DNA of 64,000 nucleotides from Candidatus Binatia bacterium (GCA_036009625.1 DASYLJ010000090.1:4590-68589); one strand, 5' to 3'; counted from the first letter of the stretch, positions 14,379 to 46,189 are shown. Numbers and translations: made by a program. Notes: generated from the sequence alone by a model not told the origin.

Positions 14379-14387
14379 GGCCTGCGC

Positions 14388-18583: not shown

Positions 18584-19699
18584 TCAGGCGCCGGCGGCGA
18601 TGAGCTCGCCGAGTCGCGCGAGCTGGCGCGCGCCCGAGCCCATGGTGAGCTCGATCGCCTTCGACCAGAGGTAGTAGCGGTACAGCGGGTAGTCGGTGTC
18701 GACGCCGATGCCACCGTGCAGATGCTGCGCGGTGTACGCGATGCGATGCCCGGCGTCGGCGGCCCAGAACTTCGCCGACAGCACCTCGGCGTGCGCCGGC
18801 CGGCCCTCGTCCAGCAGCCACGCCGCCTGCCACAACGTCAGCCGGATGCCCTCGACGTCGATGAAGGCGTCGGCGGCACGCTGCTGCACCGCCTGGAAGC
18901 TGGCGATGGCGCGATCGAACTGCTTGCGCTCGATGGTGTACTGCGCGGTCATGCGCAGCGCACGATCGACGACGCCGAGCTCGAGCGCGCACAGTCCCAC
19001 CGTGGCGTGATCGACGAGCCATTCGACGATGGCCGTGCCCGCCATGGGATCGCCGAGCACGTCGTCGGCGATGGCGCCCGTCAGCGTCATGCGCGACAGC
19101 GGCTCCTTGTTGGTGGCGATCTGGCGCTCGAGGGTGACACCCTGCGCCTGCGGATCGATCAGGAAGACGCCGATCGTCCCGTCACCGGTGCGTGCCGGCA
19201 CGAGCACGCGCGCGGCGAGGTGGGCCGCGGGCACGCACTGCTTCACGCCCTCGAGACGCCAGCCGTCGCCGTCCCGCACGGCGCGTGTCTCCGGCGCTGC
19301 CGGATCCTCGGCCGGGAACTCGGTGAGCGCTGCGGTCAGGATGACGTCGCCCGAGACGACACCGGGCAGCCACTTCGCCTTCTGCTCCGCCGTACCGAAC
19401 GCGGCGATGGGTGCCGCGCCCAGCAGCGCCGTCGCCCACACCGGCACCGGTGCAACCGTGCCGCCCACCTGCTCGAGCACGAGGCAGAGCTCGACGAGCC
19501 CGAGGCCGACGCCGCCGTACTCCTCGGGCAGCGCCAGGCCGAGGAGGCTGGCCTTGGCGAGCGCGCCCCAGAGATCACGATCGAACCAGTCGGGTGTCTG
19601 CTCGATGGCCTTGAGACGATCCTGGGTGACGTGGTCCTGACAGATCTGCTTGGCGAGGTCCCGCAGGGCCTCCTGATCGGGGCTGAAGGCGAAATCCAT
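18584..19699 (-). CDS. acyl-CoA dehydrogenase family protein
   Basis: ATG at 19699 (MDFAFSPDQEALRDLAKQ). ACAD N-terminal, middle and C-terminal domains are recognisable (QHLHGGIGV). 371 aa. Confidence 0.85.
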   Translation of the reverse strand: MDFAFSPDQEALRDLAKQICQDHVTQDRLKAIEQTPDWFDRDLWGALAKASLLGLALPEEYGGVGLGLVELCLVLEQVGGTVAPVPVWATALLGAAPIAAFGTAEQKAKWLPGVVSGDVILTAALTEFPAEDPAAPETRAVRDGDGWRLEGVKQCVPAAHLAARVLVPARTGDGTIGVFLIDPQAQGVTLERQIATNKEPLSRMTLTGAIADDVLGDPMAGTAIVEWLVDHATVGLCALELGVVDRALRMTAQYTIERKQFDRAIASFQAVQQRAADAFIDVEGIRLTLWQAAWLLDEGRPAHAEVLSAKFWAADAGHRIAYTAQHLHGGIGVDTDYPLYRYYLWSKAIELTMGSGARQLARLGELIAAGA

Positions 19700-19719
19700 G
19701 ATGATCGATCTCCGTTGGC

Positions 19720-20892
19720 TCAGCGGGACTTCGGCATGCCGAGGCCGCCCATCGCGATGATGTCGCGCTGGATCTCGTTGGTGCCGGCGCCAAAGGTCAT
19801 GATGAGAATGGCGCGATACATGCGTTCGAGACGGCCCTGCAGCCGCGCCTCGGGCGATCCGGCCTTCACCGCACCGGCCTGCCCGAGAATCTCGAGCAAC
19901 AGGCGGTAGGCCTCGACGTAGAACTCGCTGCCGAACACCTTCACGGTGGACGACTCGGCGTAGTTCATCTCGCCGCGGCTCATGCTCCACGCCTGACGCC
20001 AGTTGAGGAGCTTCAGCACCTCGAGCTTGGCGTGCACGTGGGCCAGGTTGCGCTGCACCCAGTGCTGGTCGATGACGCGCTGTCCGTTCGGCAGCTTCGT
20101 CGCCGCCGCCCAGTCGCGCGTCTCCTGGTAGTAGCGATCCGTCGGGCCGTACGGGATCAGCGACACGCGCTCGTGGTTCAGCTGGCCCACGATGAGCCAC
20201 CAGCCGCCGTTCTCGGGGCCGATCAGGTGATCGGCGGGGACGCGCACGTCCTCGAAGAAGGTGGCGTTGGTGGTGACGTCGCCCATCGTCGGCAGCGGCG
20301 AGATCTTGTAGCCCGGTGACGACGTCGGGACCATGAAGATCGAGATGCCGTCGTGCTTCTTGGCGGTGGGATCGGTGCGTGCCGCGAGCCAGATGAAGTC
20401 GGCGTACTGCGCCTGGCTGGTGTAGAGCTTGGCGCCGTTGATGACCCACTGATCGCCGTCACGAACGGCGCGCGTGCGCAGCGACGCCAGGTCGGTGCCG
20501 GCACCCGCCTCGGTGTAACCGATTGCGAAGTGGACGTCGCCGTGGAGCGCTTTCGGCAGGAAGCGCTGCTTCTGCTCCTCGGTGCCGTACTGCATGAGCA
20601 TCGGGCTCACCGACATGATGGTGAGCGTCGGCAGCACGATGTTCGCGCGCCACGCCTCGTCGAAGAAGATGAACTGTTCGATCGGCGTGCGACCCTGGCC
20701 GCCGTATTCTTTGGGCCAGCCCACGCCGAGCCACCCGTCGGCGCCCATCTTCTTGAGCGCCTTCATGTACTCCGGCCCGCCGCCCTCGGTGACGGCGATC
20801 TCGGCCTCGTACGCGGGCGTCACGATGCCGCGAAAATATTCGCGAATCTGGTCGCGGAGCGCCTTGTGCTCCGGGAGGAGATCGATGTGCAT
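19720..20892 (-). CDS. acyl-CoA dehydrogenase family protein
   Basis: MHIDLLPEHKALRDQIREYF...GYTEAGAGTDLASL...FGAGTNEIQRDIIA. Lies directly upstream of the second ACAD gene. Confidence 0.85.
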   Translation of the reverse strand: MHIDLLPEHKALRDQIREYFRGIVTPAYEAEIAVTEGGGPEYMKALKKMGADGWLGVGWPKEYGGQGRTPIEQFIFFDEAWRANIVLPTLTIMSVSPMLMQYGTEEQKQRFLPKALHGDVHFAIGYTEAGAGTDLASLRTRAVRDGDQWVINGAKLYTSQAQYADFIWLAARTDPTAKKHDGISIFMVPTSSPGYKISPLPTMGDVTTNATFFEDVRVPADHLIGPENGGWWLIVGQLNHERVSLIPYGPTDRYYQETRDWAAATKLPNGQRVIDQHWVQRNLAHVHAKLEVLKLLNWRQAWSMSRGEMNYAESSTVKVFGSEFYVEAYRLLLEILGQAGAVKAGSPEARLQGRLERMYRAILIMTFGAGTNEIQRDIIAMGGLGMPKSR

Positions 20893-20958
20893 GCGGCGGA
20901 GTGATACGCGGTCGCGGGCGCGACAGTCAAACGACCGTTTGGGGGCGCCGGAGCGTGC

Positions 20959-22119
20959 TCAGAGCAGTCGTCTGGAGGCGAGATCGGCGCCTTCGCGCAG
21001 CGCTTTCAGCTTGGCCCACACCACTTCCTCGGCGACTTCGCCGAGGCCGGCGGCAGTGGCGAAGCCGCAGTCGGTGCCGGCGATCACACGACGCGGGTCG
21101 CCGATCGCCTGCGCGGCGCGCTCGAGGCGGTCGGCAACCACTTCGGGATGCTCGACGTAGTTCGTGGTGGTGTCGATCACGCCCGCGATCAGCAGCCAGC
21201 TCGCCGGCAGTGGGTGCTTCGCGATGGTGCGCCACTCGTGCTCGTGACGCGGGTTCGCCATCGACAGCACGACGCCGCCGACGCGCGCGTGCACGAGGTG
21301 CGGCAGCAGGATGTCGAGCGGCACGTCGCAGTCGTGCGGCCCCTCGTAGTTGCCCCAGCACACGTGCAGCCGGACGCGATCGGGCGGGATGCGCGCCAGC
21401 GCGCGGTTCATCGCACGGATCACGAGGTCGACGAAGGTGAGGAAGTCCTCGATGGGACGGTCGGCGAACAACGTGTGCCGTTCCATCGCCAGGTCGGGGC
21501 AGTCGATCTGCAGGATGAAACCCTGCGCGACGATGGCGGCGTACTCGTGCCGCAGCGCCTCGGCCAGCGCCACGACGTATTCCTCGAACGTCGGGTAGTG
21601 CGCGTTCTCCATCGCGCACGCGACGATGCCCGGCGACGGCGCGGTCATGAACGACTCGGAGAACGACCGCCCGACGTCGGCCAGCACGCGGCGGTAGACG
21701 TCGGCGTCGCGCTCGACGGCCGTCGGATCGGTATAGTGCACGGGGCCGGTCGCACGCGGCGCGCGCATCAGGCTCACCATGTCGCGCGCGAAGTCGGGCA
21801 GTCGCTGCGTCAGGAACGTCGGGTAGCGCACGATGTCGCGCATGATGGGACGGCTGCTCTCGCCGGCGAAGCCACTCATGCGGTGCTGCAGGTAGGTGAA
21901 GAAGCTCTCGCGCGGATGCTCGCCGTCGTTGCCGACGTCGATGCCGGCGTCGAGCTGGCTCTCGACGACGCGGCGCGTGGAGGCCGCGATGGCGGCGGCC
22001 AGCTCGGCGGCGTCGACCGGCTCGTTCCGGCTGCGGCGCACGAAGAGTGCATTCAGCTCCGGCGAGCGTGGCAGGCTGCCGGCGTGGGTGGTCAGGATGC
22101 GCGACGTGCTGGCGAGCAT
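20959..22119 (-). CDS. cobalamin-independent methionine synthase (MetE C-terminal domain)-like family protein
   Basis: THAGSLPRS...QIDCPDLA...HVCWGNYEG...TDCGF is the Zn-ligand pattern of the MetE-like / UROD-like family. Confidence 0.65.
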   Translation of the reverse strand: MLASTSRILTTHAGSLPRSPELNALFVRRSRNEPVDAAELAAAIAASTRRVVESQLDAGIDVGNDGEHPRESFFTYLQHRMSGFAGESSRPIMRDIVRYPTFLTQRLPDFARDMVSLMRAPRATGPVHYTDPTAVERDADVYRRVLADVGRSFSESFMTAPSPGIVACAMENAHYPTFEEYVVALAEALRHEYAAIVAQGFILQIDCPDLAMERHTLFADRPIEDFLTFVDLVIRAMNRALARIPPDRVRLHVCWGNYEGPHDCDVPLDILLPHLVHARVGGVVLSMANPRHEHEWRTIAKHPLPASWLLIAGVIDTTTNYVEHPEVVADRLERAAQAIGDPRRVIAGTDCGFATAAGLGEVAEEVVWAKLKALREGADLASRRLL

Positions 22120-22168: not shown

Positions 22169-23854
22169 TCAGCGCGTGAGCAGCATGCAGCCGGCCACCG
22201 GTCCACCGCCGTTCGCGACCACGGCGACCTCGCAATCGGGTACCTGCCGCGCGCCGCACTCGCCACGCAGCTGACGGATGGCCTCGGCGAGGAATCCGAA
22301 CCCATGCAGACGCCCGCCCGAGAGCTGGCCACCCCACGTGTTCGACGGCAGGGCGCCACCCAGCTCGAGGCGACCGCCCTCGACGAACGGCCCGCTCTCG
22401 CCGCGGCCACAGAAGCCGAGCGCTTCGAGCCACGACAGCGTCAGGAAGCTGAAGCCGTCGTAGAGCTGCGCGGTGTCGACGTCGGCGGGCGTCAGGTCGG
22501 TGCGCGACCACAGCTGCGCGCCGGCGTCGCGCGACGACATGGACGTGAGATCCTCCCACTGGTCCCAGCTCGGACGCGAGCGCATCGCCGTGCCGACCGC
22601 GTTCACGTGCACCGCCGGCTTCGGCAGATCGCGCGCGACGTCACGATGCGACACGATGACCGCCGTCGAGCCGTCGCACGGGGCGTCGCAGTCGTAGAGG
22701 CTGAAGGGCCAGCTCACCATGCGCACCGCGAGGTAGTCGTCGAGCGTCATCGGCTCGCGATAGACCGCATCGGGATTCAGCGCCGCGTGCTTGCGCCCCG
22801 CCAACGCCACCGCCCCGAGGTGCTCGCGGCGCGTGCCGAACTCGTGCATGTGGCGCACGCAGTTCATCGCCAGCCAGTTCGCCGCCGACATCGCGCCGTA
22901 CGGGATGAGGTAGGCGCCGAACCCGCCGATCTCGCGCGACCCGGCGCCGATGCCACGCCGTCCGTGGCCAGCCGCGGCCGACGCCTCGCTCACGGTGCGA
23001 TAGACGAGGACGTGCCGCGCCAGCCCCGCCGCCACCGCGAGGGACGCCGCGATCACGGGCGCGATCTGCGCCGCCCCCTCCGGCCCCGCCTGATGCCAGC
23101 TCACCGACAGGCCGAGCGCGTCCTGCACGTCGACGATGCTCGGTCCCGAGAACCCTGGTGGTGCGCCGCCCATGAACCCTGGGTAGGAGGCGATGCCGTC
23201 GATGTCGTCGGGCGTGAGCCCGGCGTCGGCGATGGCGCGCAGCGCCGCCTCGGCGGTGAGGTCCATGTCGGTGCGGAAGAGCCTCCGGCCGATCTGCGAC
23301 TGCCCGACACCCGACAGGATCGCTCGTCGCTCCAGGCGTTCCTCGGGCAGGATGTGTCGCGGCGGCCGCGACAGCACGACGTCGGTGTCGGTGGCCTTGG
23401 GCGGGGTTGCCGGCGTCGTACGCAACGCGGCGGCGTCGCGCGGCGCCGGGTCGGGCTCGAACATCGGCAGCGAGATCTCGTCGTTGACCTTCTGGAAGAC
23501 GACGCGCACCGGCATGCCGATCTGCACCGCGTCGACGGCACAGCCGACGATGTTCGTCATGAGGCGCAGGTTCGGCTGCTCGACCAGCTCGACGATGGCG
23601 ATGACGTACGGCACTTCCAGCCCCGGCATCCAGCGCTGGTGGTTCACCGTGTACGTCGCCACGGTGGCGAGTCCCGACAGGTCCTCGGGTGCGACGTCGC
23701 GGCTGCGACAGCGCGAGCACACCGGTCGTGACGGATGGATGATCCAGCGACACGCGCGACAGCGCGTCATCGCGAGGCGTCCCTCGCGACACGCCGTCCA
23801 GTAGGCTTCGCTGTCGGGCTCGATGGCGGGGAGCGGGGCGAAGGGATGGTCCAT
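22169..23854 (-). CDS. fusion protein: N-terminal DUF35 (Zn-ribbon + OB fold) and C-terminal thiolase-like (SCP-x/Ltp type) domain
   Basis: ATG at 23854. Zn ribbon CRACRWIIHPSRPVCSRCRS. OB fold GLATVATYTVNHQ...VIAIVEL. After a Pro/Ala linker comes a thiolase-like domain (ILSGVGQSQIGRR...). I see no obvious nucleophile Cys. Confidence 0.65.
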   Translation of the reverse strand: MDHPFAPLPAIEPDSEAYWTACREGRLAMTRCRACRWIIHPSRPVCSRCRSRDVAPEDLSGLATVATYTVNHQRWMPGLEVPYVIAIVELVEQPNLRLMTNIVGCAVDAVQIGMPVRVVFQKVNDEISLPMFEPDPAPRDAAALRTTPATPPKATDTDVVLSRPPRHILPEERLERRAILSGVGQSQIGRRLFRTDMDLTAEAALRAIADAGLTPDDIDGIASYPGFMGGAPPGFSGPSIVDVQDALGLSVSWHQAGPEGAAQIAPVIAASLAVAAGLARHVLVYRTVSEASAAAGHGRRGIGAGSREIGGFGAYLIPYGAMSAANWLAMNCVRHMHEFGTRREHLGAVALAGRKHAALNPDAVYREPMTLDDYLAVRMVSWPFSLYDCDAPCDGSTAVIVSHRDVARDLPKPAVHVNAVGTAMRSRPSWDQWEDLTSMSSRDAGAQLWSRTDLTPADVDTAQLYDGFSFLTLSWLEALGFCGRGESGPFVEGGRLELGGALPSNTWGGQLSGGRLHGFGFLAEAIRQLRGECGARQVPDCEVAVVANGGGPVAGCMLLTR

Positions 23855-23899
23855 GGCGACGCGGTTATTCCGCGCCTGGCGCGCTCCGCGCAACCTCGC

Positions 23900-27203: not shown

Positions 27204-27992
27204 ATGCACTTGCCCAACGGCTCCCTTCCCTCGCGCGCACCGACCTCGCCACAACTGATCCCCTCGATTGAGGACGGCCGTTTCCAACCGAGCTTCACGA
27301 GGTTCATCGAGACAGTGCTGACGGTGCTCGCCCTCGCAGTCGTTCCTGCCTGTGGCACCGCACCGTTGGCCCCAGGTCTTGGACCGATTGGCGTTGTGCC
27401 TTTCTCCACCGATCCGAGCGCACTGGCGATCAGTCGCTACGAGGGCGACACGGCACAGCTCGGGTCTCTGCTCGCCACCCAAGCGGTCACGTTCTTGAAG
27501 CGGAGGGATCGCGATGCCCAAGTCGCGCCGCAGGATAGCCCAATCGATAGCGGCACTATCGTTTCCGGGCGAATCACGAGACTGGACGGCGGAAATCGAG
27601 CTCTACGCGCCCTTGTCGGCTTCGGAGCGGGCGGTTCGACTTGCGCGGCTGATGGCACCGTCAGTCGCGCCGACGGAACTCGAATTGGGACATTCGCCCT
27701 CGAGAGGAAGCGCAAAGGTACCGGATTCTTCTGGGTTCGGTTCGGAGAGAGTGCGGAGCTTCAGCTCCAGAAATGTGTTGAAAGCCTGGGAAACGGCATC
27801 GGCCAACTCGTCGACCAAGGGAAGTGGACACCTGCGCCGGCAGCAGTTTCACCGACGCTCAGTCAGCCTGCACCGCCATCACAACGAACTACCCAGGACA
27901 GGCTGGTGGAGCTGGATGAGCTGAAGTCACGTGGTCTGATCACCGACCGTGAGTATGAGGAGAAGCGCAAGCGAATCCTCGAGGAGTTCTGA
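27204..27992 (+). CDS. lipoprotein with a C-terminal SHOCT domain (central part DUF4410-like)
   Basis: Lipobox LALAVVPAC. C-terminal RLVELDELKSRGLITDREYEEKRKRILEEF is a SHOCT-type helix pair. GC content and third-position GC are clearly lower than in neighbouring genes. The start is uncertain: the ATG at 27204 puts 50 aa before the lipobox Cys, and the in-frame GTG at 27315 is an alternative. Confidence 0.6.
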   Translation: MHLPNGSLPSRAPTSPQLIPSIEDGRFQPSFTRFIETVLTVLALAVVPACGTAPLAPGLGPIGVVPFSTDPSALAISRYEGDTAQLGSLLATQAVTFLKRRDRDAQVAPQDSPIDSGTIVSGRITRLDGGNRALRALVGFGAGGSTCAADGTVSRADGTRIGTFALERKRKGTGFFWVRFGESAELQLQKCVESLGNGIGQLVDQGKWTPAPAAVSPTLSQPAPPSQRTTQDRLVELDELKSRGLITDREYEEKRKRILEEF

Positions 27993-28052: not shown

Positions 28053-28901
28053 TCACCCAAACAGCGCCCGCAGCACGAGGCGCGCGAAGTCGCCGCGTCT
28101 GAGCGTCGGGCGCTGCGCGAAGACGTCGCCGTCCACGGCGTCGATGCGGTCGAGGATCGCCATGCCGCCGCGGGCGAAGAGGCGCACCTCACGACGCAGG
28201 CGTCCCGTCACCATGGACGCGAGCGGCAGGCCGCGTTCGAAGAGTGCCCGCGCGCGCGCCACCTCGAAGCGCAGCAGCTCGCGGAAACCGGGCGTCACCC
28301 GGCGCGACGCCAGCGCGTCGCGGCTGCCGGCGAAGCGATCGAGATCGTCCTGCGGCAGGTAGACGCGGCCACGGTCGAGATCGCCGGCGACGTCCTGCCA
28401 GCAGTTCGTCAGCTGCAGCGCAGTGCAGATGTCGTCGGAGCGCGCCTGGCGCTCGGTGTCGTGGTGACCGAAGAGGCCGAGGACGATGCGCCCCACCGGA
28501 TTCGCCGAGCAGCGGCAGTAGTCGTAGAGCGCATCGATCGTGGCCATGCCGGCGGTCTCACCGGCAGCGTCGCGACGGAACGCCGTGATCAGATCGCGAA
28601 ACGGCTGCACCGGCAGACGGTGCGCCGTGAGGGTGTGGCTCAGCGCCACGAAGATGGGATCGTCGACCGACGTCGGATCGCCGGCACACGCGAGCAGCTT
28701 CGCCTCGAACTCGTCGAGCCGGTCGAGACGACCGACGTCGCTGCCCTCGTCGGCGAGGTCGTCGCCGGCGCGCGCAAAGGCATAGACGGCGGCGAGGTCG
28801 CGCCGCAGGTGCCGCGGCAGCAGCCACGAGCCGATGGGGAAGTTCTCGTAGTGCGCACGCGCGATGCGCGCGCACTCGGCGTACGCCTGCTCGATCTCCA
28901 C
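28053..28901 (-). CDS. hpnC: squalene/phytoene synthase family protein, HpnC type (hydroxysqualene synthase-like)
   Basis: The GTG at 28901 lies 2 nt after the upstream TGA. AHYENFPIGSWLLP is an HpnC-type N-terminal motif. Both Asp-rich motifs are present (DDLAD, DVAGD). 282 aa. Confidence 0.75.
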   Translation of the reverse strand: MEIEQAYAECARIARAHYENFPIGSWLLPRHLRRDLAAVYAFARAGDDLADEGSDVGRLDRLDEFEAKLLACAGDPTSVDDPIFVALSHTLTAHRLPVQPFRDLITAFRRDAAGETAGMATIDALYDYCRCSANPVGRIVLGLFGHHDTERQARSDDICTALQLTNCWQDVAGDLDRGRVYLPQDDLDRFAGSRDALASRRVTPGFRELLRFEVARARALFERGLPLASMVTGRLRREVRLFARGGMAILDRIDAVDGDVFAQRPTLRRGDFARLVLRALFG

Positions 28902-28903
28902 GC

Positions 28904-29968
28904 TCAGGCCACCCGTCGATGGGTGCCGTCGGCGCCGCACACGAAGTCGCCGGCGAAGCCCTCGGGCGGCGCCGTGCGCCGGCAGAGCGCGTCGTACTCG
29001 GCCGGCGTCACCGCGACGCGCGGCCCCGACGCCACGCCCGCCTCGCTCCCGGCTCGACCCGACACCAGCGCCGTGAACAGCTCGGCGCTCCCACCGCCCG
29101 CGGCGAAGCACCCCACGCGACGACCGGAGAGGATGCGGCCCTCGGCCTCGAGCAGTGCGGCCAATGCCAGGCCGAGTGACGCCGCGCCGGTGTCACCGGC
29201 ATGGCACGCGACGGCGAGCGCCGGATCGACCTGCTCGACGGTGGCCGCCGCGAGCGCTTCGGCGAGGCGCGCTTCGACGTCGGACCAACGCCGCTCGTTC
29301 GCCCGCCAGTCGCGCTCGATCACCCGGCGATGTGCATCGCGCGCGGCGTCCGGGCTCGAGGCGGCATAGACGACGCGGGCCAGGCGGTCCGTCAGCGCTT
29401 CCGTTCCCTCGGGCTCGGGACGCTCCCGCGACCGCCACGCGAGGAACGCACCCTCGAGCGCCGCGGCGTCGGCTGCGCCGGTCCAGGCCACGGCATCGTC
29501 GGCGAAGACGACGGCACGCGGCTCGGTGCCGACGAGCATCGCGACCGCGCCCGCACCCATCGGGCGCGAGCCGTCGACGCGGACGTCGGCAGCGACCACC
29601 AGCGCGCGCCGTGCGCGCATGCCGCCGGCGCGTACCCAGTCGGCCGCCGTCGACAGCGCCGCCGTGCCGGCACACCACGGATGGCGCACGTCGAGCAGGC
29701 GGCAGCGGGCGCCGAGGCCCGTGAGCTCGTGCACGACGGGGCTCACGGGTGCGGCGGCGTTGGTGGCCACCAGCAGCAGGCCGACGTCACCCGGATCGGT
29801 GTCGTCCGCACGCAGCAACCGCGCCGCGGCGGTCGCGGCCATGGTGATGGTGTTCTCGCCCGGCACCGCGAGCGCGACCTCGATGGTGCCACCAGCGGAC
29901 GCCGGGTCGGCGAGCGGCAGGCGATGCGCGGGAACGTAGGCGTGCAGGCGTTCGACGCCAACGCTCAT
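28904..29968 (-). CDS. HMG-CoA synthase-like (thiolase-fold) protein, divergent
   Basis: The ATG at 29968 forms an ATGA overlap with the cyclase stop. It aligns by eye to bacterial MvaS over ALVVAADV....GAGAVAMLVGTEPR and over the Cys region (HPWCAGTAAL). It is shorter (354 aa), and other catalytic positions appear substituted. Confidence 0.55.
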   Translation of the reverse strand: MSVGVERLHAYVPAHRLPLADPASAGGTIEVALAVPGENTITMAATAAARLLRADDTDPGDVGLLLVATNAAAPVSPVVHELTGLGARCRLLDVRHPWCAGTAALSTAADWVRAGGMRARRALVVAADVRVDGSRPMGAGAVAMLVGTEPRAVVFADDAVAWTGAADAAALEGAFLAWRSRERPEPEGTEALTDRLARVVYAASSPDAARDAHRRVIERDWRANERRWSDVEARLAEALAAATVEQVDPALAVACHAGDTGAASLGLALAALLEAEGRILSGRRVGCFAAGGGSAELFTALVSGRAGSEAGVASGPRVAVTPAEYDALCRRTAPPEGFAGDFVCGADGTHRRVA

Positions 29969-31890
29969 GCCATCGTCGTCCGCGCGCGATACTGCCCGAG
30001 GGCCCGCAGCGGGAAGTGCAGCGGATACAGGTGGTAGCGCAGGTAGCTGCGGCGGGGGACACCGGTGCCGGTGTAGGCACGCTCGTTCCACCCGCCGTCG
30101 TCACGCTGCGTGCCGACGAGATGCGCGATGCCGCGCCGCACCGCCTCGCTCTCCGCACCGTCGACTGCCATCAAGGCGAGCAGCGCCCAGGCCGTCTGCG
30201 TCGGCGTGCTGTCGCCTCGACCGATCTGCTCGGCGTCGTCGTACGACGCCGGCGACTCGCCCCAGCCGCCGTCCGCGTTCTGGTGCGCGCAGAGCCACTC
30301 GACGGCGGAGCGTATCCACGGCGACTGCAGATCGGCGTCGGCGTTGGCGAGGCCGGTGAGCGCCAGGCTCGTGCCGTAGAGCGCGTTGACACCCCACCGT
30401 CCGCGCCAGCTGCCGTCGGGCTGCTGCTCGCGACGCAGGAACTCGACCGCGCGGCGCACGCGACCGAACTCGGGCCCGAAGCCGGTGGCGCCCATCAGCC
30501 CGAGCACGCGACCCGTCGAATCGGGGTTCGGTGGATCGGTGAGCCCTTCGAGATCGGGGAACGGCACCGCGTCGAGGAAGCGCGCCGGTCCGTGGTTGTC
30601 GAACGCCGCCCAGCCGCCGTCACGGTGCTGCATGCCGAGGGTCCAGTTGCTGCCGTGCGCGAGCGCACGACGACCCGCCGCCGTCGCCGCCTGCGGCAGT
30701 CGGCCCAGCGCCAGCAGCGTCTCGGCCGAGACGTCGATGTTGGGATACGAATCGTTCGCGAGCTCGACCGCCCAGCCACCGGGATCCAGCTGCGGATTGC
30801 GCACCGACCAGTCGCCGGGACGGAAGATCTGCCGCGACACGAGCCAGTCGCCCGCGCGCACCAGCGCCGGGGTGGCGGGATCGACACCAGCATCAAGCAG
30901 CGCCTGTACCGCCAGCGCCGTGTCCCAGTTGGGCGACGTGCACGGCTGGTGCAGCAGCTCGTCACCCTGCTGCAGCAGCAGATCGTCGATGCCTTGGAGG
31001 CCGCGCACCATGACGGGATGGTCGAGCGCGAAGCCCACGGCGTGCAGGGCGAGCACCGAGTGCACCATCGCCGGCTGGATGCCGCCCCACTGTCCGGTGG
31101 CGTCCTGACGACGCAGGATCCACTCGATGGCGCGTGCCACCGCGCGCCGGCGGAGCGGCTTCCACGGCACGCGCCCGAGCAGCCCGAGCGCACGATCGAG
31201 GCCGAGGAACGCGTTGCGCCAGGTGAGGACGCGACGCGAGCGCGCGAACGACAGGGCGTCGGCGGTGGGCTCGCGTACCCAGAGCTCGGGGACGCCGGCG
31301 CCGAACGGCACGCGCGCCGCCGGGCGATGCACGCCCAACAGCGCGAACGGCACCAACACCGAGCGCGCCCAGCTCGAGAACGCGTAGATGCCGAGCGGCG
31401 ACCATGGCGGCAGCAGCACGACCTCGATCGGCATCGCCGGCACGCCCTGCCACGGGAACTGTCCGAAGCACGCGAGCCAGAAGCGCGCGTAGAGCCCCGC
31501 ACGCGCGAGCCCGCCCTGCGCCAGGATGAAGTCGCGCCCGCGCAGCATGGCGGGATGATCACCGGCCAACCCGGTGAGCTTCAGCGCGAAGTAGACCTCG
31601 ATGCTGGTGGACAGGTGGCCAGGGAGGCCCGTGGCCAGCGACCAGCCACCGTCCTCCTGCTGCAGGCGCAGCAGACGATCGACGAGGCGCGCTTCCAGCT
31701 CGGGGCGCTTTCGTCCGAGCAGGCGGTTCAGGAATATCCACTCGGCCTCGAGGTTGCCCGCAGCTTCGACCGGCGCCTGCCAGTAGCCGCTCGACTGCTG
31801 TTCCGTGAGCAGACGCTCGGTGGCGCGCGCGACCGCACCGGCCACCGCGTCCACGACCCCCACCCCTGCCGTCGGTTGCTGCAACGTCAC
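29965..31890 (-). CDS. squalene-hopene cyclase family (class II triterpene cyclase) protein with a non-canonical active-site motif
   Basis: GTG start at 31890 forms a GTGA overlap with the mvk stop. It can be aligned by eye along its full length to Alicyclobacillus SHC (QW repeats, GGIQP, GRWGVN.LYGT, TPTQTAWALLAL). The DxDD motif position reads NIDVSAE. Confidence 0.8.
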   Translation of the reverse strand: MTLQQPTAGVGVVDAVAGAVARATERLLTEQQSSGYWQAPVEAAGNLEAEWIFLNRLLGRKRPELEARLVDRLLRLQQEDGGWSLATGLPGHLSTSIEVYFALKLTGLAGDHPAMLRGRDFILAQGGLARAGLYARFWLACFGQFPWQGVPAMPIEVVLLPPWSPLGIYAFSSWARSVLVPFALLGVHRPAARVPFGAGVPELWVREPTADALSFARSRRVLTWRNAFLGLDRALGLLGRVPWKPLRRRAVARAIEWILRRQDATGQWGGIQPAMVHSVLALHAVGFALDHPVMVRGLQGIDDLLLQQGDELLHQPCTSPNWDTALAVQALLDAGVDPATPALVRAGDWLVSRQIFRPGDWSVRNPQLDPGGWAVELANDSYPNIDVSAETLLALGRLPQAATAAGRRALAHGSNWTLGMQHRDGGWAAFDNHGPARFLDAVPFPDLEGLTDPPNPDSTGRVLGLMGATGFGPEFGRVRRAVEFLRREQQPDGSWRGRWGVNALYGTSLALTGLANADADLQSPWIRSAVEWLCAHQNADGGWGESPASYDDAEQIGRGDSTPTQTAWALLALMAVDGAESEAVRRGIAHLVGTQRDDGGWNERAYTGTGVPRRSYLRYHLYPLHFPLRALGQYRARTTMA

Positions 31891-32806
31891 GACCTCTCCT
31901 CCGTGCCACTTCCGACCCTGACGATCAACGTCTCCACGCCGCCGCGCCGCAGCATGGCGGCGACGGTCTCCGGGTCGTCGGCGAGGGCGATGACCGCGCC
32001 GCCGGCCCCGCCGCCGGTGAGCTTCGCCCCGAGCGCACCGGCGCTGCGCGCGGCGGCAACGAGCGCGTCGGTCGACGGCGACGACACGCCGAGCGCGGCG
32101 AGCAGCGTCTGGTTGTCGTCGAAGGCGCGCCCGAGCGCCGCGAGATCACCCACAGCGGCCGCGGCGGCGCCACGCTCGACCACGGCCGTGACGTCGTCGA
32201 AGAGCGCCTCGTGGCGCGCACGATCGTGCTCCCAGCGCTCGCGCAGACCACCCACCGCGGCGCCGGTGCTGCGCGCCTGCGAACCGAACGCCACCACCAA
32301 CGGCAGCGCACGCGCGGTGCGCAGCGGCGTCACCACGGGCGGGTCACCGCGCACGAACCGGAAGCAGGTGCCGAGCGCCGCCGCCGCCGGATCGATACCC
32401 GACGGCGTGCCGTGGAAGATGGCCTCGAGCCGCCGCCCGACGGCGAGCTCCTCGGCGGTGTCGAGCGTGCGCCCCGCGGCGGCGGAGAGTGCGCGCAACG
32501 TCGCCACCGCGAGCGCTGCCGAGCTCCCGAGCCCGCGTCCCGCCGGCAGCTCCGAGCGCACCCGCACGACGACACGCGATGGGTCGAGGCCGACGATCGC
32601 CGCCGCCTCGGCGACGAGTCGCGCCGGCCGCGCATCGTCCGGCGGGAGGGGATGATCGCTCACGAGGGCCGGGCCGGCACCGTCCTCGACGACGGCCTCG
32701 AGCCCGATCGGCAGACCGGCGGCGATGGCCGGTCGGCCGTAGACGACGACGTGCTCTCCGAGGAGGATGATCTTCCCGCCGGCGTGACCGCGCGCGGGAC
32801 GACGCA

Positions 32807-32807
<1 letters not shown>
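31887..32807 (-). CDS. mvk: mevalonate kinase
   Basis: The ATG at 32807 overlaps the HMGR TGA by 1 nt. GKIILLGEHVVVYG and the GHMP ATP motif PAGRGLGSSAA are present. Confidence 0.8.
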
Positions 32808-34079
<1,272 letters not shown>

Positions 34080-34087
<8 letters not shown>

Positions 34088-35153
34088 GCGCCTCCTCCAA
34101 GAATGACCCGGGCGTGATCCAATCGCGCAGCCGGCGCCCCAGCACAAGGGGAGCGCGTGACAAAGCCTGTACGTCGCGCGAGCCGGTGAGTACCATCGCC
34201 GTCCGCAGCTCGTCCACGAGCTGCTCGACGTAGCGGCTGGCGCCGTCGACGCCCCCGGCCTTCAGGGCCCGGAAGACGGGGAGTGCGACACCGGCCACCC
34301 GGGCCCCGAGGGCCAGCGCCTTGGCGACGTCGAGCCCGCTGCGGATGCCGCCGCTGGCCATGCAGTCGAACCCGAGGCCGCGGAGGCCGAGGAGCGCCGC
34401 CGCGGTCGGAATCCCCCACTCGGCGAAGGTGTCGCCGAGCGCGCGTTGCGCCTCGTCGGCCCGCAACGCCTCGACCCGCACCCAGGACGTGCCGCCCGCA
34501 CCCGAGACGTCGACGGTGTGCACGCCGGCGGCGCGCAGCCGCTCGCCGACCGCGCGCGACACGCCGCAGCCGGTCTCCTTCGCCACCACCGGCACCGGCA
34601 GCTCGCGCACGAGGCGGCGGAAGGTGTCGAGGCCGCCACGGAAGTCGCGGTCGCCGCCGGGCTGCACCAACTCCTGGGCGGCATTCATGTGGACGCAGAG
34701 GGCATCGGCACCGACGGCCCGCACCAGCGCCACGATGTCGGCCGACGGCATCGACGCGGCCTGCACGACGCCGAGGTTGGCGAGCACGAGCGTGGTGGGC
34801 GCGTGGGTGCGCACCTCGAACGTGTAGCCGAGGCCGGGCTCGCGGTGCATCGCGCGCTGCGAGCCGAGGCCGAACGCGATGCCGTGCGCCTCGGCCACCT
34901 GCGCCAGCGACTGGTTGATGTCGGCGGCCTCGTCGGTGCCACCCGTCATGCCGGTGATGACGAGCGGCGCGCGCAGGCGCTTCCCGAGCAGCGTCGTCGC
35001 GACGTCGACCTCGTCCACCGCCAGCTCGGGGAGGGCGTCATGCACCAGCTCGACCTCTTCGAGCAGCGTGGTCTTGCCGGTGTACTCGACGGGGCCGGTC
35101 GCACAGTGGTCGAGGTGGGAGCGCTTGCGCTCGCTGATGGTGCCCTCAGCCAA
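34080..35153 (-). CDS. fni: type 2 isopentenyl-diphosphate delta-isomerase (FMN-dependent)
   Basis: RKRSHLD...PLVITGMTGG...ETGCG...SGAGGTSW...ASGGIRSGLDVAKALALGA. Confidence 0.85.
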
Positions 35154-36096
35154 CGGTCACACCCTCGTCGGCGATCACCACGTCGAGCGGCACGATGCCG
35201 ACCTCTTCCCAGGCGGCGCGGACCGCGGCGGCCTGCGTCGTCGACGTCGCCAGCGCGATGCCGCAGTCGCCCGCACCCGCACCCGACGGCTTCGCCGCCG
35301 CACCGACGCGATTCGCCGCGCGTACGAGCGTCGACAGCGCGGGCGTGACGATGGGCAGGTCGAGCTCGGTGCCGAATCGCGCCAGCAACGCCGCCGAACG
35401 ATCGACGGCATCGAGCAGCGTCGCGGCGTCGCCGCGCGCCACCGCCTCGGCCGCACGCACCGCGACCGCGAACAGCTCGGCGAACGACGCCGGCGCCGTG
35501 ACGGTCGCGAAGCGCGTCAGCAACGGCGTCGTGTGCGCGGACGTGCCCGTCCAGCCGGCGAGCAGGTGGAGCCCGACGGGCAGCGTGCGGCGCTCGACCG
35601 CGAGCGCCGGCTCGGCGCGACGCGCCTCGACGACGCCGCCGTACACCGCGGCCGCGATGTCGGCACCGCTGCCCTGCCCGGCCTGGAAGAGCGCATTCGC
35701 CGCCAACGCCGCGTCGAGGATGGCGCGCGCCGCCGCCGCTGGCTGCAGGGCCGCGGTCGCCGCCACGAGCGTGGCGGCGCTCCGACCGAGCCCGAGCTTG
35801 CGATCGCCGACGAGAAAGGAACGCGAGTCGACGACGACGTGCAGCGGCGTACGGATGCCGAGCGTGCGCGCGACGGCGAGCACGGTGCCGGCGTCGCCGA
35901 GCGGCAGCGGCGCATCGACGTCGAGCCGCGTGGTCCGTCCTTCGGCGAGCGACTCGACGACCACGCCGCGATCGCCGGCGTCCACGGTCACCACGGCGTG
36001 CCGATCGACGGCGGCGACCAGCGCCGGCGCGCCACGCAGCACCGCCCACTCGCCGGTGATGAAGAGCTTGCCGGGCGCGTGCGCGGTGACGCTCAC
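35146..36096 (-). CDS. phosphomevalonate kinase (GHMP, ERG8 type)
   Basis: The GTG at 36096 forms a GTGA overlap with the decarboxylase stop. APGKLFITGEWAVLRG and GHMP motif KLGLGRSAA. Confidence 0.7.
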   Translation of the reverse strand: MSVTAHAPGKLFITGEWAVLRGAPALVAAVDRHAVVTVDAGDRGVVVESLAEGRTTRLDVDAPLPLGDAGTVLAVARTLGIRTPLHVVVDSRSFLVGDRKLGLGRSAATLVAATAALQPAAAARAILDAALAANALFQAGQGSGADIAAAVYGGVVEARRAEPALAVERRTLPVGLHLLAGWTGTSAHTTPLLTRFATVTAPASFAELFAVAVRAAEAVARGDAATLLDAVDRSAALLARFGTELDLPIVTPALSTLVRAANRVGAAAKPSGAGAGDCGIALATSTTQAAAVRAAWEEVGIVPLDVVIADEGVTVG

Positions 36097-37130
36097 GCCA
36101 CCACCTCGGCGCCGATCCCGGGCGCACAGGTGATGACCCGCACGACGCCCGGCACGGCACCGAGCGCCTCCGCGACGCGGGGCGCATCGTTGGCCGTGCA
36201 CAGCGCCTTCACCTGCGGACCGGCGTCGATGGTGATCCAAGCGGGGACGCCATCGGCGCGCAGCGCCCACACGCGATGGATGCAGTCGACGGTGGCACCG
36301 CGCCAGTAGAGCAGCGGCGGTCGCGCGGCGAGCCCGATGGCGTGCATCTTGAGCGCGCTGTGCTCGGCGAGCTGACCGAGCGCCTCGAGGTCACGGGCGC
36401 GGATGGCGGCGCGCGCCTCGGCGAGATCGGCCTCGGCGCCCGCCACCCATGCAGGATAGAGCGGTGACGCGGCCGCGCGCGCCATGCCGTCGCGCGACGA
36501 CACGCTCTTCGGCGCCGTGGTGGTGACGGCGACCACCACGCGCACGTCGCTCCACGCGGTGGCATCGAGCAGTGGCTCGGCAATGGAATCGGCGCCGTCG
36601 GCGCGCTCGCCGCGATGCCACTCGACGAAGCCGCCGAAGATGCTGCGCGCCGCGGAGCCGGAGCCGCGTCGTGCCAGCGCCGACAGTGCCGGCGGATCGA
36701 GATGGAGACCCGCCGCCTGCGAGCCCGCCACCGCCAGCGCCGCGAACGCCGCCGCCGACGACGCCAGGCCGACGCCGCGCGGGACGTGGCTGCGCGTCAC
36801 CACCGACACCGGCTCGCGCCGTCCGGACTCCTGGCGCAGTAGATCGACGAAGCGCGCCAGCCGGGTCCGCTCCTCGCCGGCGGCCGGGGCCTCGTCGATC
36901 TCGAAGCGGTCCTCGTCGGTGGCGGCGAAGGCCACGCGGGCATCGATGGAGAGGCCGTCGAGGGTGATCGAGATGCTGCCGGTGGCGGGAAGGTTCAGCT
37001 CGGGATCGCGTTTGCCCCAGTACTTGACCAGGGCGACGTTCACGTTGCTGCGGGCAGTGGCCTCGGACCTGGTCATCGCGACGGCGCCGGTTCTAACCTT
37101 TTCGGTCGGCCGACGCACGGCCCCCATCAT
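36093..37130 (-). CDS. mvaD: diphosphomevalonate decarboxylase
   Basis: NVALVKYWGKRD...GLASSAAAFAAL. The start is either the ATG at 37130 (ATGA overlap with the upstream gene) or the ATG at 37076 (MTRSEATARSNVNVALVKYWGK). Confidence 0.8.
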   Translation of the reverse strand: MMGAVRRPTEKVRTGAVAMTRSEATARSNVNVALVKYWGKRDPELNLPATGSISITLDGLSIDARVAFAATDEDRFEIDEAPAAGEERTRLARFVDLLRQESGRREPVSVVTRSHVPRGVGLASSAAAFAALAVAGSQAAGLHLDPPALSALARRGSGSAARSIFGGFVEWHRGERADGADSIAEPLLDATAWSDVRVVVAVTTTAPKSVSSRDGMARAAASPLYPAWVAGAEADLAEARAAIRARDLEALGQLAEHSALKMHAIGLAARPPLLYWRGATVDCIHRVWALRADGVPAWITIDAGPQVKALCTANDAPRVAEALGAVPGVVRVITCAPGIGAEVVA

Positions 37131-37669
37131 CGACGTTCGGTCGCGACCTGGGCGGCGCCGAGGGCAGCGAAGAGGCTGCTCTCACGCTGATAGAAGCCCT
37201 GCGTGTGCGGCGAATCGCGCAGCCGCAGGTAGGTGTAGTCGAGGTGGTGGCAGAGCTCGTGCAGGAGGGTGCGGAGGAAGGTGCGGTACGCCACCACCTG
37301 CCCCTTCTTCGCCGTCAGCATCCAGAGGGTGATCTGGTCGAGGCCGCCGCGATTCCCAGGAACGTACAGCCCGTGCAGCTCGCTGCGGGAATCGTGGGGC
37401 CGGCGTTCCTGCACGATCACGCGCAGCTTCGACACCCCCAAGCCGATGCAGACACCGTCGGCGATGCGCTGGGACACCGCCTGGACGTCGGCGGCGCGTG
37501 CCGATGCCAACGCATCGGCGAGGCACGCGACGGCGGCCTGCAGCGCCGGATGCGGATGCAACGGCAGGGCAGAATACTGATCGCTCTTCGCCGCCACCTT
37601 GAGCGTCGCTGGGGACCAGCGCCGATAGTAGGTGGGACGTGGCCGCGGCTGCGACGGAACGGCGGGCAT
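37127..37669 (-). CDS. putative HExxH zinc metallopeptidase (SprT / YgjP-like)
   Basis: LLHELCHHLDY motif near the C-terminus. The likely start is the ATG at 37669, although the ORF is open to 37816. Its stop overlaps the mvaD start. Confidence 0.45.
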   Translation of the reverse strand: MPAVPSQPRPRPTYYRRWSPATLKVAAKSDQYSALPLHPHPALQAAVACLADALASARAADVQAVSQRIADGVCIGLGVSKLRVIVQERRPHDSRSELHGLYVPGNRGGLDQITLWMLTAKKGQVVAYRTFLRTLLHELCHHLDYTYLRLRDSPHTQGFYQRESSLFAALGAAQVATERR

Positions 37670-43845: not shown

Positions 43846-45849
43846 CTACTCGAAGTCGAACTCTTCGACGACCTGCAATCCTCGCAAGATCGTGGGAGGG
43901 AATCCTTCGACGAAGCGCGACGGCTTGCCGAGCACCATGCCCGTTGCGCGGTCGTAGATGTCGATCGGATACGTCAGGTAGAGGTGCTCCTTCGCGCGCG
44001 TGACGGCGACGTAGAGCAGGCGACGCTCCTCCTCCACTTCCTCCTGATCGTGGAGGTTGTGGTACGACGGGAAGCGGCCGTCGACGAGGCCGATGACGAA
44101 CACCACGCGCCACTCGAGGCCCTTCGCCGAGTGGATGGTGGAGAGCGTCAGCATGCCTTCGTCGACCTCGGCGGCGAGCACGTCGCCGACGCTGTCGGTG
44201 GGCGGCTCGAGCGCCATGTCGGTGAGCAGGCTGCTCAACGTGCGGTAGCGCGCGGCGATGGTGAGGAAGTGCTCGAGGTCTTTCTCGCGCTTCGGGTAGT
44301 CCTCGGGATGCAGATGCCGCAGCATCGGCGCGTAGAAGCCGACGACGCGCGCTACCTGCTCCTCGGGCGATATCTCCTCGGGGGCGATCTCGCGCAGCAG
44401 CTCGGCGAGACGTCCGAGCTCCTTCGAGTACGCGCCGCGCTTCGGATAGTCCGCCAGCAACGCGGCTGCCTGCGCGATGTCGGCGGCCGCCGCACCGACG
44501 TGACGGAACACGTCGTCGGCGGTCTTCGGTCCGAGCCCGTCGAGCAGCAGCAGCATGCGGTGCCAGGACACGGCGTCGCGTGGGTTCGCCACCACGCGGA
44601 GGTGGGCGAGGACGTCCTTCACGTGCGCGGTCTCGATGAACTTGAAGCCGCCGCGCTTGACGAACGGGATGTCGTGGCGCTGCAGCTCGAGCTCGAGGTC
44701 GAACGAGTGGTAGCTCGAGCGGAAGAGCACCGCCATCTCATCGAGCGACACGCCCTCCTCACGCAGCTCGAGGATGCGCTGCGAGACGAAGCGCGACTGG
44801 TTGCGCTCGTCGGCGGCGCGCACCAGCAGCGGAATGCGACTGCCCGGGTTGCGCGCGCGCAGCACCTTGGTGTGCTTCTCGGGGGCGCGGTCGATGATGC
44901 CGTTGGCGAGCTGCAGGATGGGCGCAGTGGAGCGGTAGTTCTCCTCGAGCTTGATGAGCTGCGTGCCGGGGAAGAGCTCGGTGAACTCCATGATGTTGCG
45001 GAAGTCGGCGCCGCGGAACGAGTAGATGCTCTGGCTGTCGTCGCCGACCGCCATCACGTTGTCGTGCGTGACGGCGAGCCCGCGCACGATCTCCGCCTGC
45101 AGGCGGTTCGTGTCCTGATACTCGTCCACCATGATGTAGCGATACGTCCGCGACAGCTGCTCGGCCGCCTCGGGGACGTCGCGCACGAGGTCGCGCAACA
45201 GCACCAGCAGGTCGTCGTAGTCGACCAGGCTGCGCTCGCGCTTGTACTTCGTGTACTGCTCGCCGAGCCGCACCAGCTCGTCGAGATGGTCGGCGAGGTG
45301 CCCGTAGTCGTCCTCGATGAGGTCGGCGACGCTGGTGCTGCGGTTCACCGCCATGCTGAGGATCTCGAGGATGGCGTTCTTACGCGGGAAGCGTCGATCT
45401 TTGCGGTCGAGGCCGGCGCGGCTGCGCAGCAGGTTCACCAGGTCTTCGGAGTCGCTGCGGTCGAGGATGGTGAAGCCGGGCTCGAGACCGACGTGACGTC
45501 CCTGCCGGCGCAGCACCGCGTTGGCGAAGGAGTGGAACGTGCCGCCGGAGACGCGGTCGCAGTTGCCGCCGACCAGCGTCGAGGCGCGACCGAGCATTTC
45601 CTCCGACGCCTTGCGGGTGAACGTCAGCAGCAGGATCTGGCCCGGCGGGACGCCGCTCTCGACGAGGCGTGCGACGCGATAAACCAGCGTGCGCGTCTTG
45701 CCGCTGCCGGCGCCGGCGATGACGAGCACGGGGCCGGCGAGCGTCGTCGCGGCGGCATGCTGCGCCTCGTTCAGCTCACCAGCGTAGTCGATGCGATAGC
45801 GCTGCGACGGCTGGGCATCGGGGCGCGAGCGGAGGGTGTAGGTATCCAT
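43846..45849 (-). CDS. ATP-dependent DNA helicase, UvrD/PcrA/Rep family
   Basis: Walker A AGAGSGKTRTLV, plus DEYQDTN, TIHSAKGLEW and YVAVTRAK. Confidence 0.9.
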   Translation of the reverse strand: MDTYTLRSRPDAQPSQRYRIDYAGELNEAQHAAATTLAGPVLVIAGAGSGKTRTLVYRVARLVESGVPPGQILLLTFTRKASEEMLGRASTLVGGNCDRVSGGTFHSFANAVLRRQGRHVGLEPGFTILDRSDSEDLVNLLRSRAGLDRKDRRFPRKNAILEILSMAVNRSTSVADLIEDDYGHLADHLDELVRLGEQYTKYKRERSLVDYDDLLVLLRDLVRDVPEAAEQLSRTYRYIMVDEYQDTNRLQAEIVRGLAVTHDNVMAVGDDSQSIYSFRGADFRNIMEFTELFPGTQLIKLEENYRSTAPILQLANGIIDRAPEKHTKVLRARNPGSRIPLLVRAADERNQSRFVSQRILELREEGVSLDEMAVLFRSSYHSFDLELELQRHDIPFVKRGGFKFIETAHVKDVLAHLRVVANPRDAVSWHRMLLLLDGLGPKTADDVFRHVGAAAADIAQAAALLADYPKRGAYSKELGRLAELLREIAPEEISPEEQVARVVGFYAPMLRHLHPEDYPKREKDLEHFLTIAARYRTLSSLLTDMALEPPTDSVGDVLAAEVDEGMLTLSTIHSAKGLEWRVVFVIGLVDGRFPSYHNLHDQEEVEEERRLLYVAVTRAKEHLYLTYPIDIYDRATGMVLGKPSRFVEGFPPTILRGLQVVEEFDFE

Positions 45850-45936
45850 TCCGGTCGAAGGGACGGTTCTACAGCGATCACCGGATGCCGTCGAGCGAGG
45901 CGTTCCGCGCGCGCGTTTTCGTGTATAGGAGGCCGT

Positions 45937-46155
45937 GTGCGACCCGAGCTCGACCTGCGCGGCGTGCAGTGCCCGCTCTCGTGGGCGAAGGCGCGCGTCT
46001 GGCTCGAGACGCGCTCACGCGGCGAGGAAGTGGCGCTGCGACTCGACGATCCGCGCGGCGCGCGCGATCTTCCGCGCGCCGCGGAGGCGTCGGGCCATCA
46101 CGTCGTCGACGTCACGCCGATCGACGGTGGATGGATCGTCCGGTTGGAGGTTTGA
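45937..46155 (+). CDS. TusA/SirA-like sulfur-carrier protein
   Basis: Hidden at the 3' end of the spurious 1160-aa ORF 42673..46155. The GTG at 45937 follows AGGAGG (45927-45932). VRPELDLRGVQCPLSWAKARVWLE carries the TusA Cys-Pro motif. 72 aa. Confidence 0.65.
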   Translation: MRPELDLRGVQCPLSWAKARVWLETRSRGEEVALRLDDPRGARDLPRAAEASGHHVVDVTPIDGGWIVRLEV

Positions 46156-46189
46156 CATGCGCACGCGCTCTGGGGTTTCGTAATTTCCC

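Follow-up and report, generated by a model that had tools for sequence, protein, structure and literature searches.

A selectively maintained variant of the Binatia mevalonate-triterpene operon with an atypical cyclase

What does a bacterium make from an operon that joins the mevalonate pathway to a homologue of squalene-hopene cyclase (SHC), when hpnD and hpnE are missing from its end? The question is raised by nine minus-strand genes at positions 28053-37669 of a 64,000-nucleotide stretch from a Candidatus Binatia bacterium (GCA_036009625.1, DASYLJ010000090.1:4590-68589), which we refer to as the window. The relatives with which it was compared, loci L003-L077, were fetched and mapped by tblastn, and the species-representative matches are uncultured Candidatus Binatia metagenome-assembled genomes. 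This type of operon is common in Binatia, and the window holds a distinct, monophyletic and selectively maintained variant of it. With moderate confidence, we read the variant as a derived mevalonate-triterpene super-operon, in which working mevalonate genes would be coupled to a neofunctionalised module of cyclase and HpnC.

A common Binatia operon and its variant form

In its usual form, the operon comprises eleven genes in the order p180-mvaD-pmk-fni-hmgR-mvk-shc-hmgS-hpnC-hpnD-hpnE and is found in dozens of loci, L005, L010, L011, L013 and L015 among them. Linkage of mevalonate and hopanoid genes is standard across Candidatus Binatia (more than 50 loci by tblastn), and recurrence of the same gene order in more than 50 independent loci argues that the arrangement did not arise by chance. 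Even a distant lineage, L019 (GCA_046327925.1), has the same core operon and additionally carries hpnH and hpnG. In this genome, HpnC and HpnD are fused into one protein of 598 amino acids (aa; 13329-15125), followed by HpnE, HpnH and an HpnG-like gene. The preliminary description of the window had presented mevalonate and hopanoid genes in one unit as unusual. The tightly coupled unit itself is borne out by the gene identities and the junctions, but it is a class-wide trait and no peculiarity of this locus. Comparison of synteny across relatives thus finds the gene order to be common in Binatia, yet we found no paper that characterises the operon: our literature search returned no description of the 11-gene arrangement or of SHC clades without the DxDD motif, reviews on how triterpene cyclases and hopanoid genes evolved are silent on it, and the main Binatota genomics paper names none of mevalonate, squalene, hopanoid or terpene (PMC8262859).

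How, then, does the window differ from its relatives? It keeps the order p180-mvaD-pmk-fni-hmgR-mvk-cyclase-hmgS-hpnC with the tight spacing of the canonical operon, the orthologous proteins being 42-82% identical, and shares with L008 and L003 the canonical flanks, namely a methyltransferase gene and p180 upstream and PTPS and DHC genes downstream. In contrast to the canonical operon, it lacks hpnD and hpnE, its hmgS is missing the catalytic residues and about 26 residues of its length, and its cyclase reads NIDVSA instead of DVDDSA at the acid motif, in addition to carrying F365V, F601V and F605S. Where the motif can be read and the sequence continues for at least 4.5 kb downstream of the cyclase, hpnD and hpnE accompany the cyclase in 22 of 22 canonical DxDD loci and in none of the 7 variant loci.

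In the bacterial pathway from HpnC, HpnD and HpnE to SHC, HpnD makes presqualene diphosphate (PSPP), the substrate of HpnC, and HpnE reduces hydroxysqualene, a three-step squalene route reportedly described by Pan et al. in 2015. The window likewise has HpnC and an SHC-family cyclase, both above the cutoffs of their models and in one operon, but neither the PSPP synthase nor the hydroxysqualene reductase, and its cyclase is short of two of the three aspartates of DxDD. Pfam scans of the 64-kb window and tblastn searches with HpnD, HpnE, HpnH, HpnG and P450 queries found no hpnD, hpnE, hpnH, hpnG, hpnP, hpnN, polyprenyl synthase or P450, confirming that hpnC is the only member of hpnCDE present and that the window holds neither a farnesyl diphosphate (FPP) synthase nor tailoring genes. 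The three-step bacterial squalene route is discussed in PMC7306690. Measured against it, the triterpene tail had been called incomplete; the two genes are indeed missing, but the state is derived, a deletion in place between conserved flanks. The missing FPP synthase, which had been counted as a further sign of oddity, is uninformative, since canonical operons encode none either.

The cyclase and its partners

The cyclase gene (29965-31890, minus strand) encodes a class II cyclase of 641 aa that passes the SHC model TIGR01507 with 663 bits (cutoff 431), a canonical Binatia SHC scoring about 120 bits higher (782). In the alignment to Alicyclobacillus acidocaldarius SHC, NIDVSA replaces DVDDTA: D374 is changed to N and D377 to V, D376 is retained, and the sequence departs from DxDD(T/S)A. 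Canonical Binatia SHCs have DVDD(S/T)A at this site, and the variants N(I/V)DVSA. The aromatic cavity is altered by F365V, F601V and F605S, and D447, W169, W312, W489, Y495, Y609 and Y612 are retained. With its acid motif and three of its phenylalanines changed, the cyclase is atypical, as had been proposed. H451R, also considered part of the anomaly, was dropped, since all Binatia SHCs, including the canonical ones, carry it.

The altered cyclase is not confined to the window. In a neighbour-joining tree of the best 120 cyclase relatives plus L006, 25 variant sequences form a single clade nested in the Binatia SHCs, and 36 positions tell them from 92 canonical sequences. Eight positions are fixed to one new residue in every variant (N39A, M42L, V174L, F293L, A435P, A439G, H604R and M619R), F601 is V or I in all 25, D377V is found in 23 and D376 is retained in 21. 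That substitutions are fixed to new invariant residues suggests a shift to a new constrained state and not decay. The open reading frames (ORFs) of about 640 aa are intact over the 25 diverged clusters, with identities down to about 53%. Outside the main variant clade, independent loss of DxDD, central aspartate included, was seen in the SHC homologues L059, L064 (DVPTSA), L077 (GIEESA) and P0163 (SVPGSA).

Published mutagenesis of SHC shows that substitutions at D376 or D377 abolish squalene cyclisation and that small residues in place of phenylalanine at 365, 601 and 605 lead to truncated ring systems. From these effects at positions 365, 376, 377, 601 and 605, we infer that the window cyclase no longer performs the standard cyclisation of squalene to hopene. 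What could it act on instead? Oxidosqualene cyclases protonate the epoxide with a single catalytic aspartate in the motif VxDCTAE, and a substrate more basic than an alkene needs no more than a single aspartate. The window cyclase, too, has one aspartate at the acid position, and its xxD-x-(S/T)-A followed by E resembles DCTAE; by this likeness, an oxygenated or otherwise more basic substrate is plausible. The enzyme nevertheless differs from oxidosqualene cyclases in being nested in the Binatia SHCs, in scoring far below the cutoff of the oxidosqualene cyclase model TIGR03463 (274.5 bits against 851), and in having neither the activating cysteine after the aspartate nor a squalene epoxidase gene nearby.

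HpnC, encoded by the last gene of the operon (28053-28901, minus strand), is a member of the squalene/phytoene-synthase family, of the hydroxysqualene synthase type, that scores 312.6 bits with TIGR03464 (cutoff 250.45) and 159.8 bits with the HpnD model (cutoff 278.6). Its identity to HpnC from canonical Binatia operons is about 70%; in the alignment with them, both Asp-rich motifs (DDLAD and QDVAGD) are retained, and the ORF of 282 aa is intact across the diverged variant clusters. The only changes found that might bear on an HpnD-free activity are T to P in YENF(T/P) and F to C in TN(F/C)WQD, the latter not universal, and they offer no explanation for such an activity.

The gene between cyclase and hpnC (28904-29968, minus strand) encodes a protein resembling HMG-CoA synthase (HMGS). 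It reaches only 69 bits with TIGR01835 (cutoff 360), a model for which canonical Binatia HMGS, at 344.5 bits, is itself just below cutoff, and its Pfam domains PF01154 and PF08540 are barely at threshold (27.1 against 25 and 25.5 against 25.1). In the alignment, ATETG has become ATN, the catalytic glutamate going with a 4-aa deletion; HACYAGT has become HPWCAGT, with W in the cysteine column and the cysteine one position on; YHTPF has become YAASS, with alanine for the catalytic histidine; and GNTYT has become GDTGA, with aspartate for asparagine. A loop of about 22 aa is deleted as well, bringing the total loss to about 26 residues. The closest solved HMGS structure is that of the Myxococcus xanthus enzyme (PDB 5HWO-5HWR). 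By its residues, the protein derives from the hmgS of the operon itself and is catalytically dead. An active, short archaeal-type HMGS working with a nearby DUF35-thiolase was considered and ruled out by the loss of the Glu, His and Cys positions. The claim that this protein is atypical therefore holds, on its lost catalytic residues and its score far below the HMGS cutoff, but its proposed membership in a dedicated pathway fares less well: a dead hmgS descendant, given up in sister lineages, has no obvious claim to be a key enzyme of the pathway. It would be non-catalytic and at most a structural partner, dispensable in other lineages. The gene is absent from some variant loci of sister lineages and also from some canonical operons, L043, L044, L049 and L069 having a DVDDSA cyclase and hpnC-hpnD-hpnE with no hmgS between cyclase and hpnC. 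Its absence from otherwise canonical operons indicates that Binatia can obtain HMG-CoA without the operon copy, even with the hopanoid genes intact.

Are these genes still under selection? The ratio of nonsynonymous to synonymous substitution rates (dN/dS) was estimated by the Nei-Gojobori method, with bootstrap intervals, for two sets of loci, the window with L008 and L003, and L016 with L017. It amounts to 0.09-0.23 for the cyclase and 0.11-0.25 for hpnC, with 0.11-0.13 for the hpnC of the window, which places both under as much constraint as the mevalonate genes (0.004-0.25, with hmgR, 99.8% identical to its L008 orthologue, at 0.004). The HMGS-like gene has the highest values in the operon (0.25-0.40; bootstrap 95% limits 0.17-0.52) and is the fastest evolving, being 62% identical to its L003 orthologue compared with 79-92% for the neighbouring genes; it is the most relaxed gene of the operon and clearly not neutral. 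A P450 gene found in sister lineages gives 0.21 (L016-L017), and the bootstrap intervals for cyclase, hpnC, HMGS-like gene and P450 all lie well below 1. The three tail genes of the window are intact and under purifying selection.

The composition of the tail varies within the clade. In the lineage of the window, it consists of cyclase, dead HMGS and hpnC; in L016, L017, L022 and L062, HMGS is gone and cyclase and hpnC are followed by a P450 and a nitroreductase; in L018, hpnC is gone as well, leaving cyclase, P450 and nitroreductase, and D376 is replaced by G. The P450 comes directly after hpnC in L016 (12816-14720) and L017 (12786-15755), together with a BluB/nitroreductase-family gene, and shares 4 nt with hpnC in L017. 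In these sister lineages, the P450 has CYP124 of Mycobacterium tuberculosis, an omega-hydroxylase of methyl-branched lipids, as its match (E = 1e-143). The P450 that is coupled to hpnC thereby falls in with the CYP124/CYP125/CYP142 omega-hydroxylases of methyl-branched lipids and steroid side chains, although, being absent from the window, it bears on the clade and not directly on the window locus. Such a partner suggests that the isoprenoid product has a methyl-branched end left free. A 401-aa PNP_UDP_1 (nucleosidase-like) gene adjoins the variant cyclase in L016, L018, L063 and L074. In L006 and L067, the trio of cyclase, dead HMGS and hpnC stands without mevalonate genes nearby. The trio cyclases of L006 / L065 (948-7775) and L067, with the motifs RVDATA or RIDVTA, form the most diverged branch of the variant clade, and the L006 trio is flanked by genes for an AurF/R2-like di-iron oxidase, a TetR regulator, a zinc alcohol dehydrogenase and a glyoxalase.

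What the variant operon may make

We would place these observations into the following scheme. The ancestral and still common form of the operon couples the supply of isopentenyl and dimethylallyl diphosphate (IPP/DMAPP) to squalene synthesis and hopene cyclisation. In one ancestral remodelling, probably a single event because the variant clade is monophyletic, hpnD and hpnE were removed, the catalytic residues of hmgS lost and the active site of the cyclase rebuilt. The six genes upstream of the cyclase in the window would still turn HMG-CoA, provided by a synthase or a route encoded elsewhere, into IPP/DMAPP. Cyclase and HpnC would remain working enzymes off the squalene-to-hopene route and make a different isoprenoid lipid, probably less fully cyclised or oxygenated, from a precursor more easily protonated than the plain double bond of squalene, such as an oxygenated C30 compound; sister lineages may oxidise this lipid further with the CYP124-like omega-hydroxylase. 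A non-hopanoid or modified product, as the preliminary description had suggested, is the better reading given the remodelled cyclase and the loss of hpnD and hpnE.

Several points weigh against such a neofunctionalised module. Product, substrate and even catalysis by the cyclase are deduced from sequence. Four of the 25 variant cyclases have lost D376 (NVGVSA, DVRVSA and NVEVSA are among their motifs), so that acid catalysis through this residue is not clade-wide. HpnC would need PSPP, and no HpnD was found, which calls for either an unseen source of PSPP or a changed role of HpnC, and the HpnC sequence holds no obvious change that would account for a new activity. The lineage of the window itself is without the P450. 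The association of 22 of 22 against 0 of 7 is probably one ancestral event and not seven independent replicates. Finally, other contigs of the variant lineage could carry hpnD, hpnE, a squalene synthase gene (sqs), a second shc and an active hmgS. On four variant-cyclase contigs of 1.94, 1.25, 0.89 and 0.22 Mb (about 4.3 Mb in all), none of the best 120 HpnD clusters and no second member of the best 120 cyclase clusters was found, a weak negative in both cases, as each cluster stands for its longest contig only.

Might the operon then be an ordinary hopanoid operon after all, its cyclase making hopene or diplopterol from squalene, with hpnD, hpnE and an active hmgS moved elsewhere? The cyclase score above the trusted SHC cutoff (663 against 431), the retained D376, D447, W169, W312, W489, Y495, Y609 and Y612, and an HpnC that looks normal are what one would expect from it. 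We nonetheless hold it to be quite unlikely in view of the lost D374 and D377 and the replaced F365, F601 and F605, positions at which, D374 apart, mutagenesis has the effects given above, the 36 coordinated substitutions, the perfect association with hpnD/hpnE loss among the informative loci, and the 4.3 Mb of variant-lineage contigs on which neither an HpnD nor a second SHC was found among the top matches. Another reading is a non-catalytic cyclase homologue, for example an isoprenoid-binding, sensing or structural membrane protein, with an operon tail that serves regulation or transport. We consider this unlikely, but the clade members without D376 would suit it, and the neighbouring HMGS is a pseudoenzyme, so that non-catalytic retention does occur in this operon. 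It is countered by the presence of D376 in 21 of 25 variants, of D447 and of most cavity Trp and Tyr residues, and by the consistent pairing of the cyclase with an HpnC that looks intact and, in other loci, with a P450 that hydroxylates lipids, which fits a biosynthetic module.

A decaying relic, in which hopanoid synthesis has been lost and a non-functional cyclase, HMGS-like protein and HpnC are carried along by essential mevalonate genes, would explain why the losses look stepwise (hpnD and hpnE first, hmgS next, inactivated and later deleted, and after it hpnC and D376 in L018) and why the HMGS-like gene has the lowest identity and the highest dN/dS of the operon. It would not explain intact ORFs of about 640 and 282 aa over 25 clusters diverged to about 53% identity, dN/dS values of cyclase and hpnC equal to those of the mevalonate genes, substitutions fixed to new invariant residues instead of scattered ones, the retained translational coupling, the gain of a new coupled P450 in sister lineages, or the trio found away from mevalonate genes in L006 and L067. 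We regard it as very unlikely.

Within the favoured reading of a neofunctionalised cyclase/HpnC module, a bolder and more specific proposal can be put forward, which we offer as tentative and doubtful: the sub-lineage may have turned its only SHC, along with HpnC, to the synthesis of a new class of C30 isoprenoid, fully or partly cyclic, by a route that bypasses squalene and in which a single-Asp cyclase with a dead HMGS partner ionises or protonates an oxygenated, PSPP-derived precursor such as hydroxysqualene, the tail being hydroxylated by the CYP124-like enzyme in sister lineages. A start from hydroxysqualene had already been floated as speculation. The apparent absence of HpnD counts against the simplest form of this idea, which would require an unseen source of PSPP or a gain of function in HpnC, neither of them hinted at by the sequence. 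If true, the squalene-independent route would represent new cyclase chemistry and possibly a new lipid biomarker for a soil phylum that is abundant and uncultured.

The variant also matters for how hopanoid genes are read. Hopanoids and fossil hopanes are widely used as biomarkers, and an SHC gene is routinely taken as proof of hopanoid production. Here, at least 25 clusters from soil and sediment metagenomes fall into a sizeable clade of SHC-family proteins that score above the cutoff of the curated SHC model and yet lack the acid motif and the squalene-supply genes; hopanoid predictions from Binatia genomes would accordingly be wrong for the variant lineage. The clade constitutes a natural experiment on how class II triterpene cyclases shift substrate or product, and the 11-gene operon, joining the mevalonate pathway to squalene and hopene synthesis, is a compact and portable design for triterpenoid production.

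Operon layout and surroundings

Nine ORFs at 28053-37669 point in one direction on the minus strand, and the coordinates and overlaps at all eight junctions, read from the sequence, are exactly as first described. Families were assigned by NCBIfam and Pfam profile searches of the window proteins. The first gene, p180 (37127-37669), encodes a 180-aa protein with an HExxH motif (HELCHH) that gives only sub-threshold Pfam matches (WLM 21.9 bits, cutoff 26; SprT-like 16 bits), no NCBIfam match and no meaningful PDB match. By tblastn, nearly every Binatia operon for which enough upstream sequence is available begins with p180 (59-82% identity), an unrelated 141-aa gene taking its position in L019, and p180 is under purifying selection (dN/dS 0.12-0.22). 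It shares a 4-nt ATGA overlap with mvaD (diphosphomevalonate decarboxylase, 36093-37130; TIGR01240 257.9 bits, cutoff 171), whose start is less sure, as the public call is later in one relative and an alternative start at 37076 is possible. A 4-nt GTGA overlap leads to a GHMP kinase gene, probably for phosphomevalonate kinase (pmk, 35146-36096), which falls below its cutoff (TIGR01220 138.8 bits against 165.7) and occupies the same position in every Binatia operon. Overlaps of 8 nt each link pmk to fni (type-2 isopentenyl-diphosphate isomerase with a TTG start, 34080-35153; TIGR02151 366.5 bits, cutoff 281) and fni to hmgR (class II HMG-CoA reductase, 32807-34087; TIGR00532 394 bits, cutoff 260). 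A 1-nt overlap (TGATG) follows between hmgR and mvk (mevalonate kinase, 31887-32807; TIGR00549 202.8 bits, cutoff 163), then 4-nt overlaps between mvk and cyclase (GTGA) and between cyclase and HMGS-like gene (ATGA), and a 2-nt gap before hpnC. The start of the cyclase is less sure, the public gene call beginning 12 codons later in one copy.

The mevalonate part thus includes mevalonate kinase, phosphomevalonate kinase, diphosphomevalonate decarboxylase, isomerase and HMG-CoA reductase, four of the five above cutoff and the phosphomevalonate kinase candidate below. Clustered, translationally coupled sets of these same genes are known from the mevalonate operons of Gram-positive cocci, Streptomyces terpenoid clusters and Myxococcus; the window differs from them in embedding triterpene cyclase and synthase genes and a dead HMGS, and in having the HExxH protein as its first gene. 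A Streptomyces-type mevalonate cluster, suspected from the G+C content of about 71%, was ruled out by the class II HMG-CoA reductase and the Binatia matches.

A divergent methyltransferase gene delimits the operon on its upstream side; downstream, the limit is a convergent DUF4410/SHOCT gene (27204-27992, plus strand), which lies between hpnC and the PTPS gene. In L003, this gene is absent and PTPS follows 11 nt after hpnC on the same strand, so the 3' boundary of the transcription unit differs between close relatives. A scan of 27-39 kb for sigma-70 promoters and intrinsic terminators returned none, which is uninformative at such a G+C content.

About 4 kb downstream of hpnC, a gene at 22169-23893 (minus strand) encodes a 574-aa fusion of a DUF35-type module (zf-ChsH2 + OB_ChsH2_C) and an SCP-x-type thiolase, resembling the archaeal thiolase/HMGS/DUF35 arrangement. 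The fusion scores below every NCBIfam cutoff, is 89-95% identical in L008 and L003 and did not turn up at distances of up to 10 kb from canonical operons; judging from its domains, it could be a source of acetoacetyl-CoA. Genes for two acyl-CoA dehydrogenases, a Meth_synt_2-like protein and an enoyl-CoA hydratase are also found near the operon (18904-22119 and 9358-10155, both minus strand), and should these genes take part in the catabolism of branched-chain acyl-CoA, they could be relevant to another source of HMG-CoA. Unrelated to the operon, a cluster of DNA repair and regulation genes at 43846-47940 encodes a UvrD-family helicase, a Ku protein and a MerR-TPR protein.

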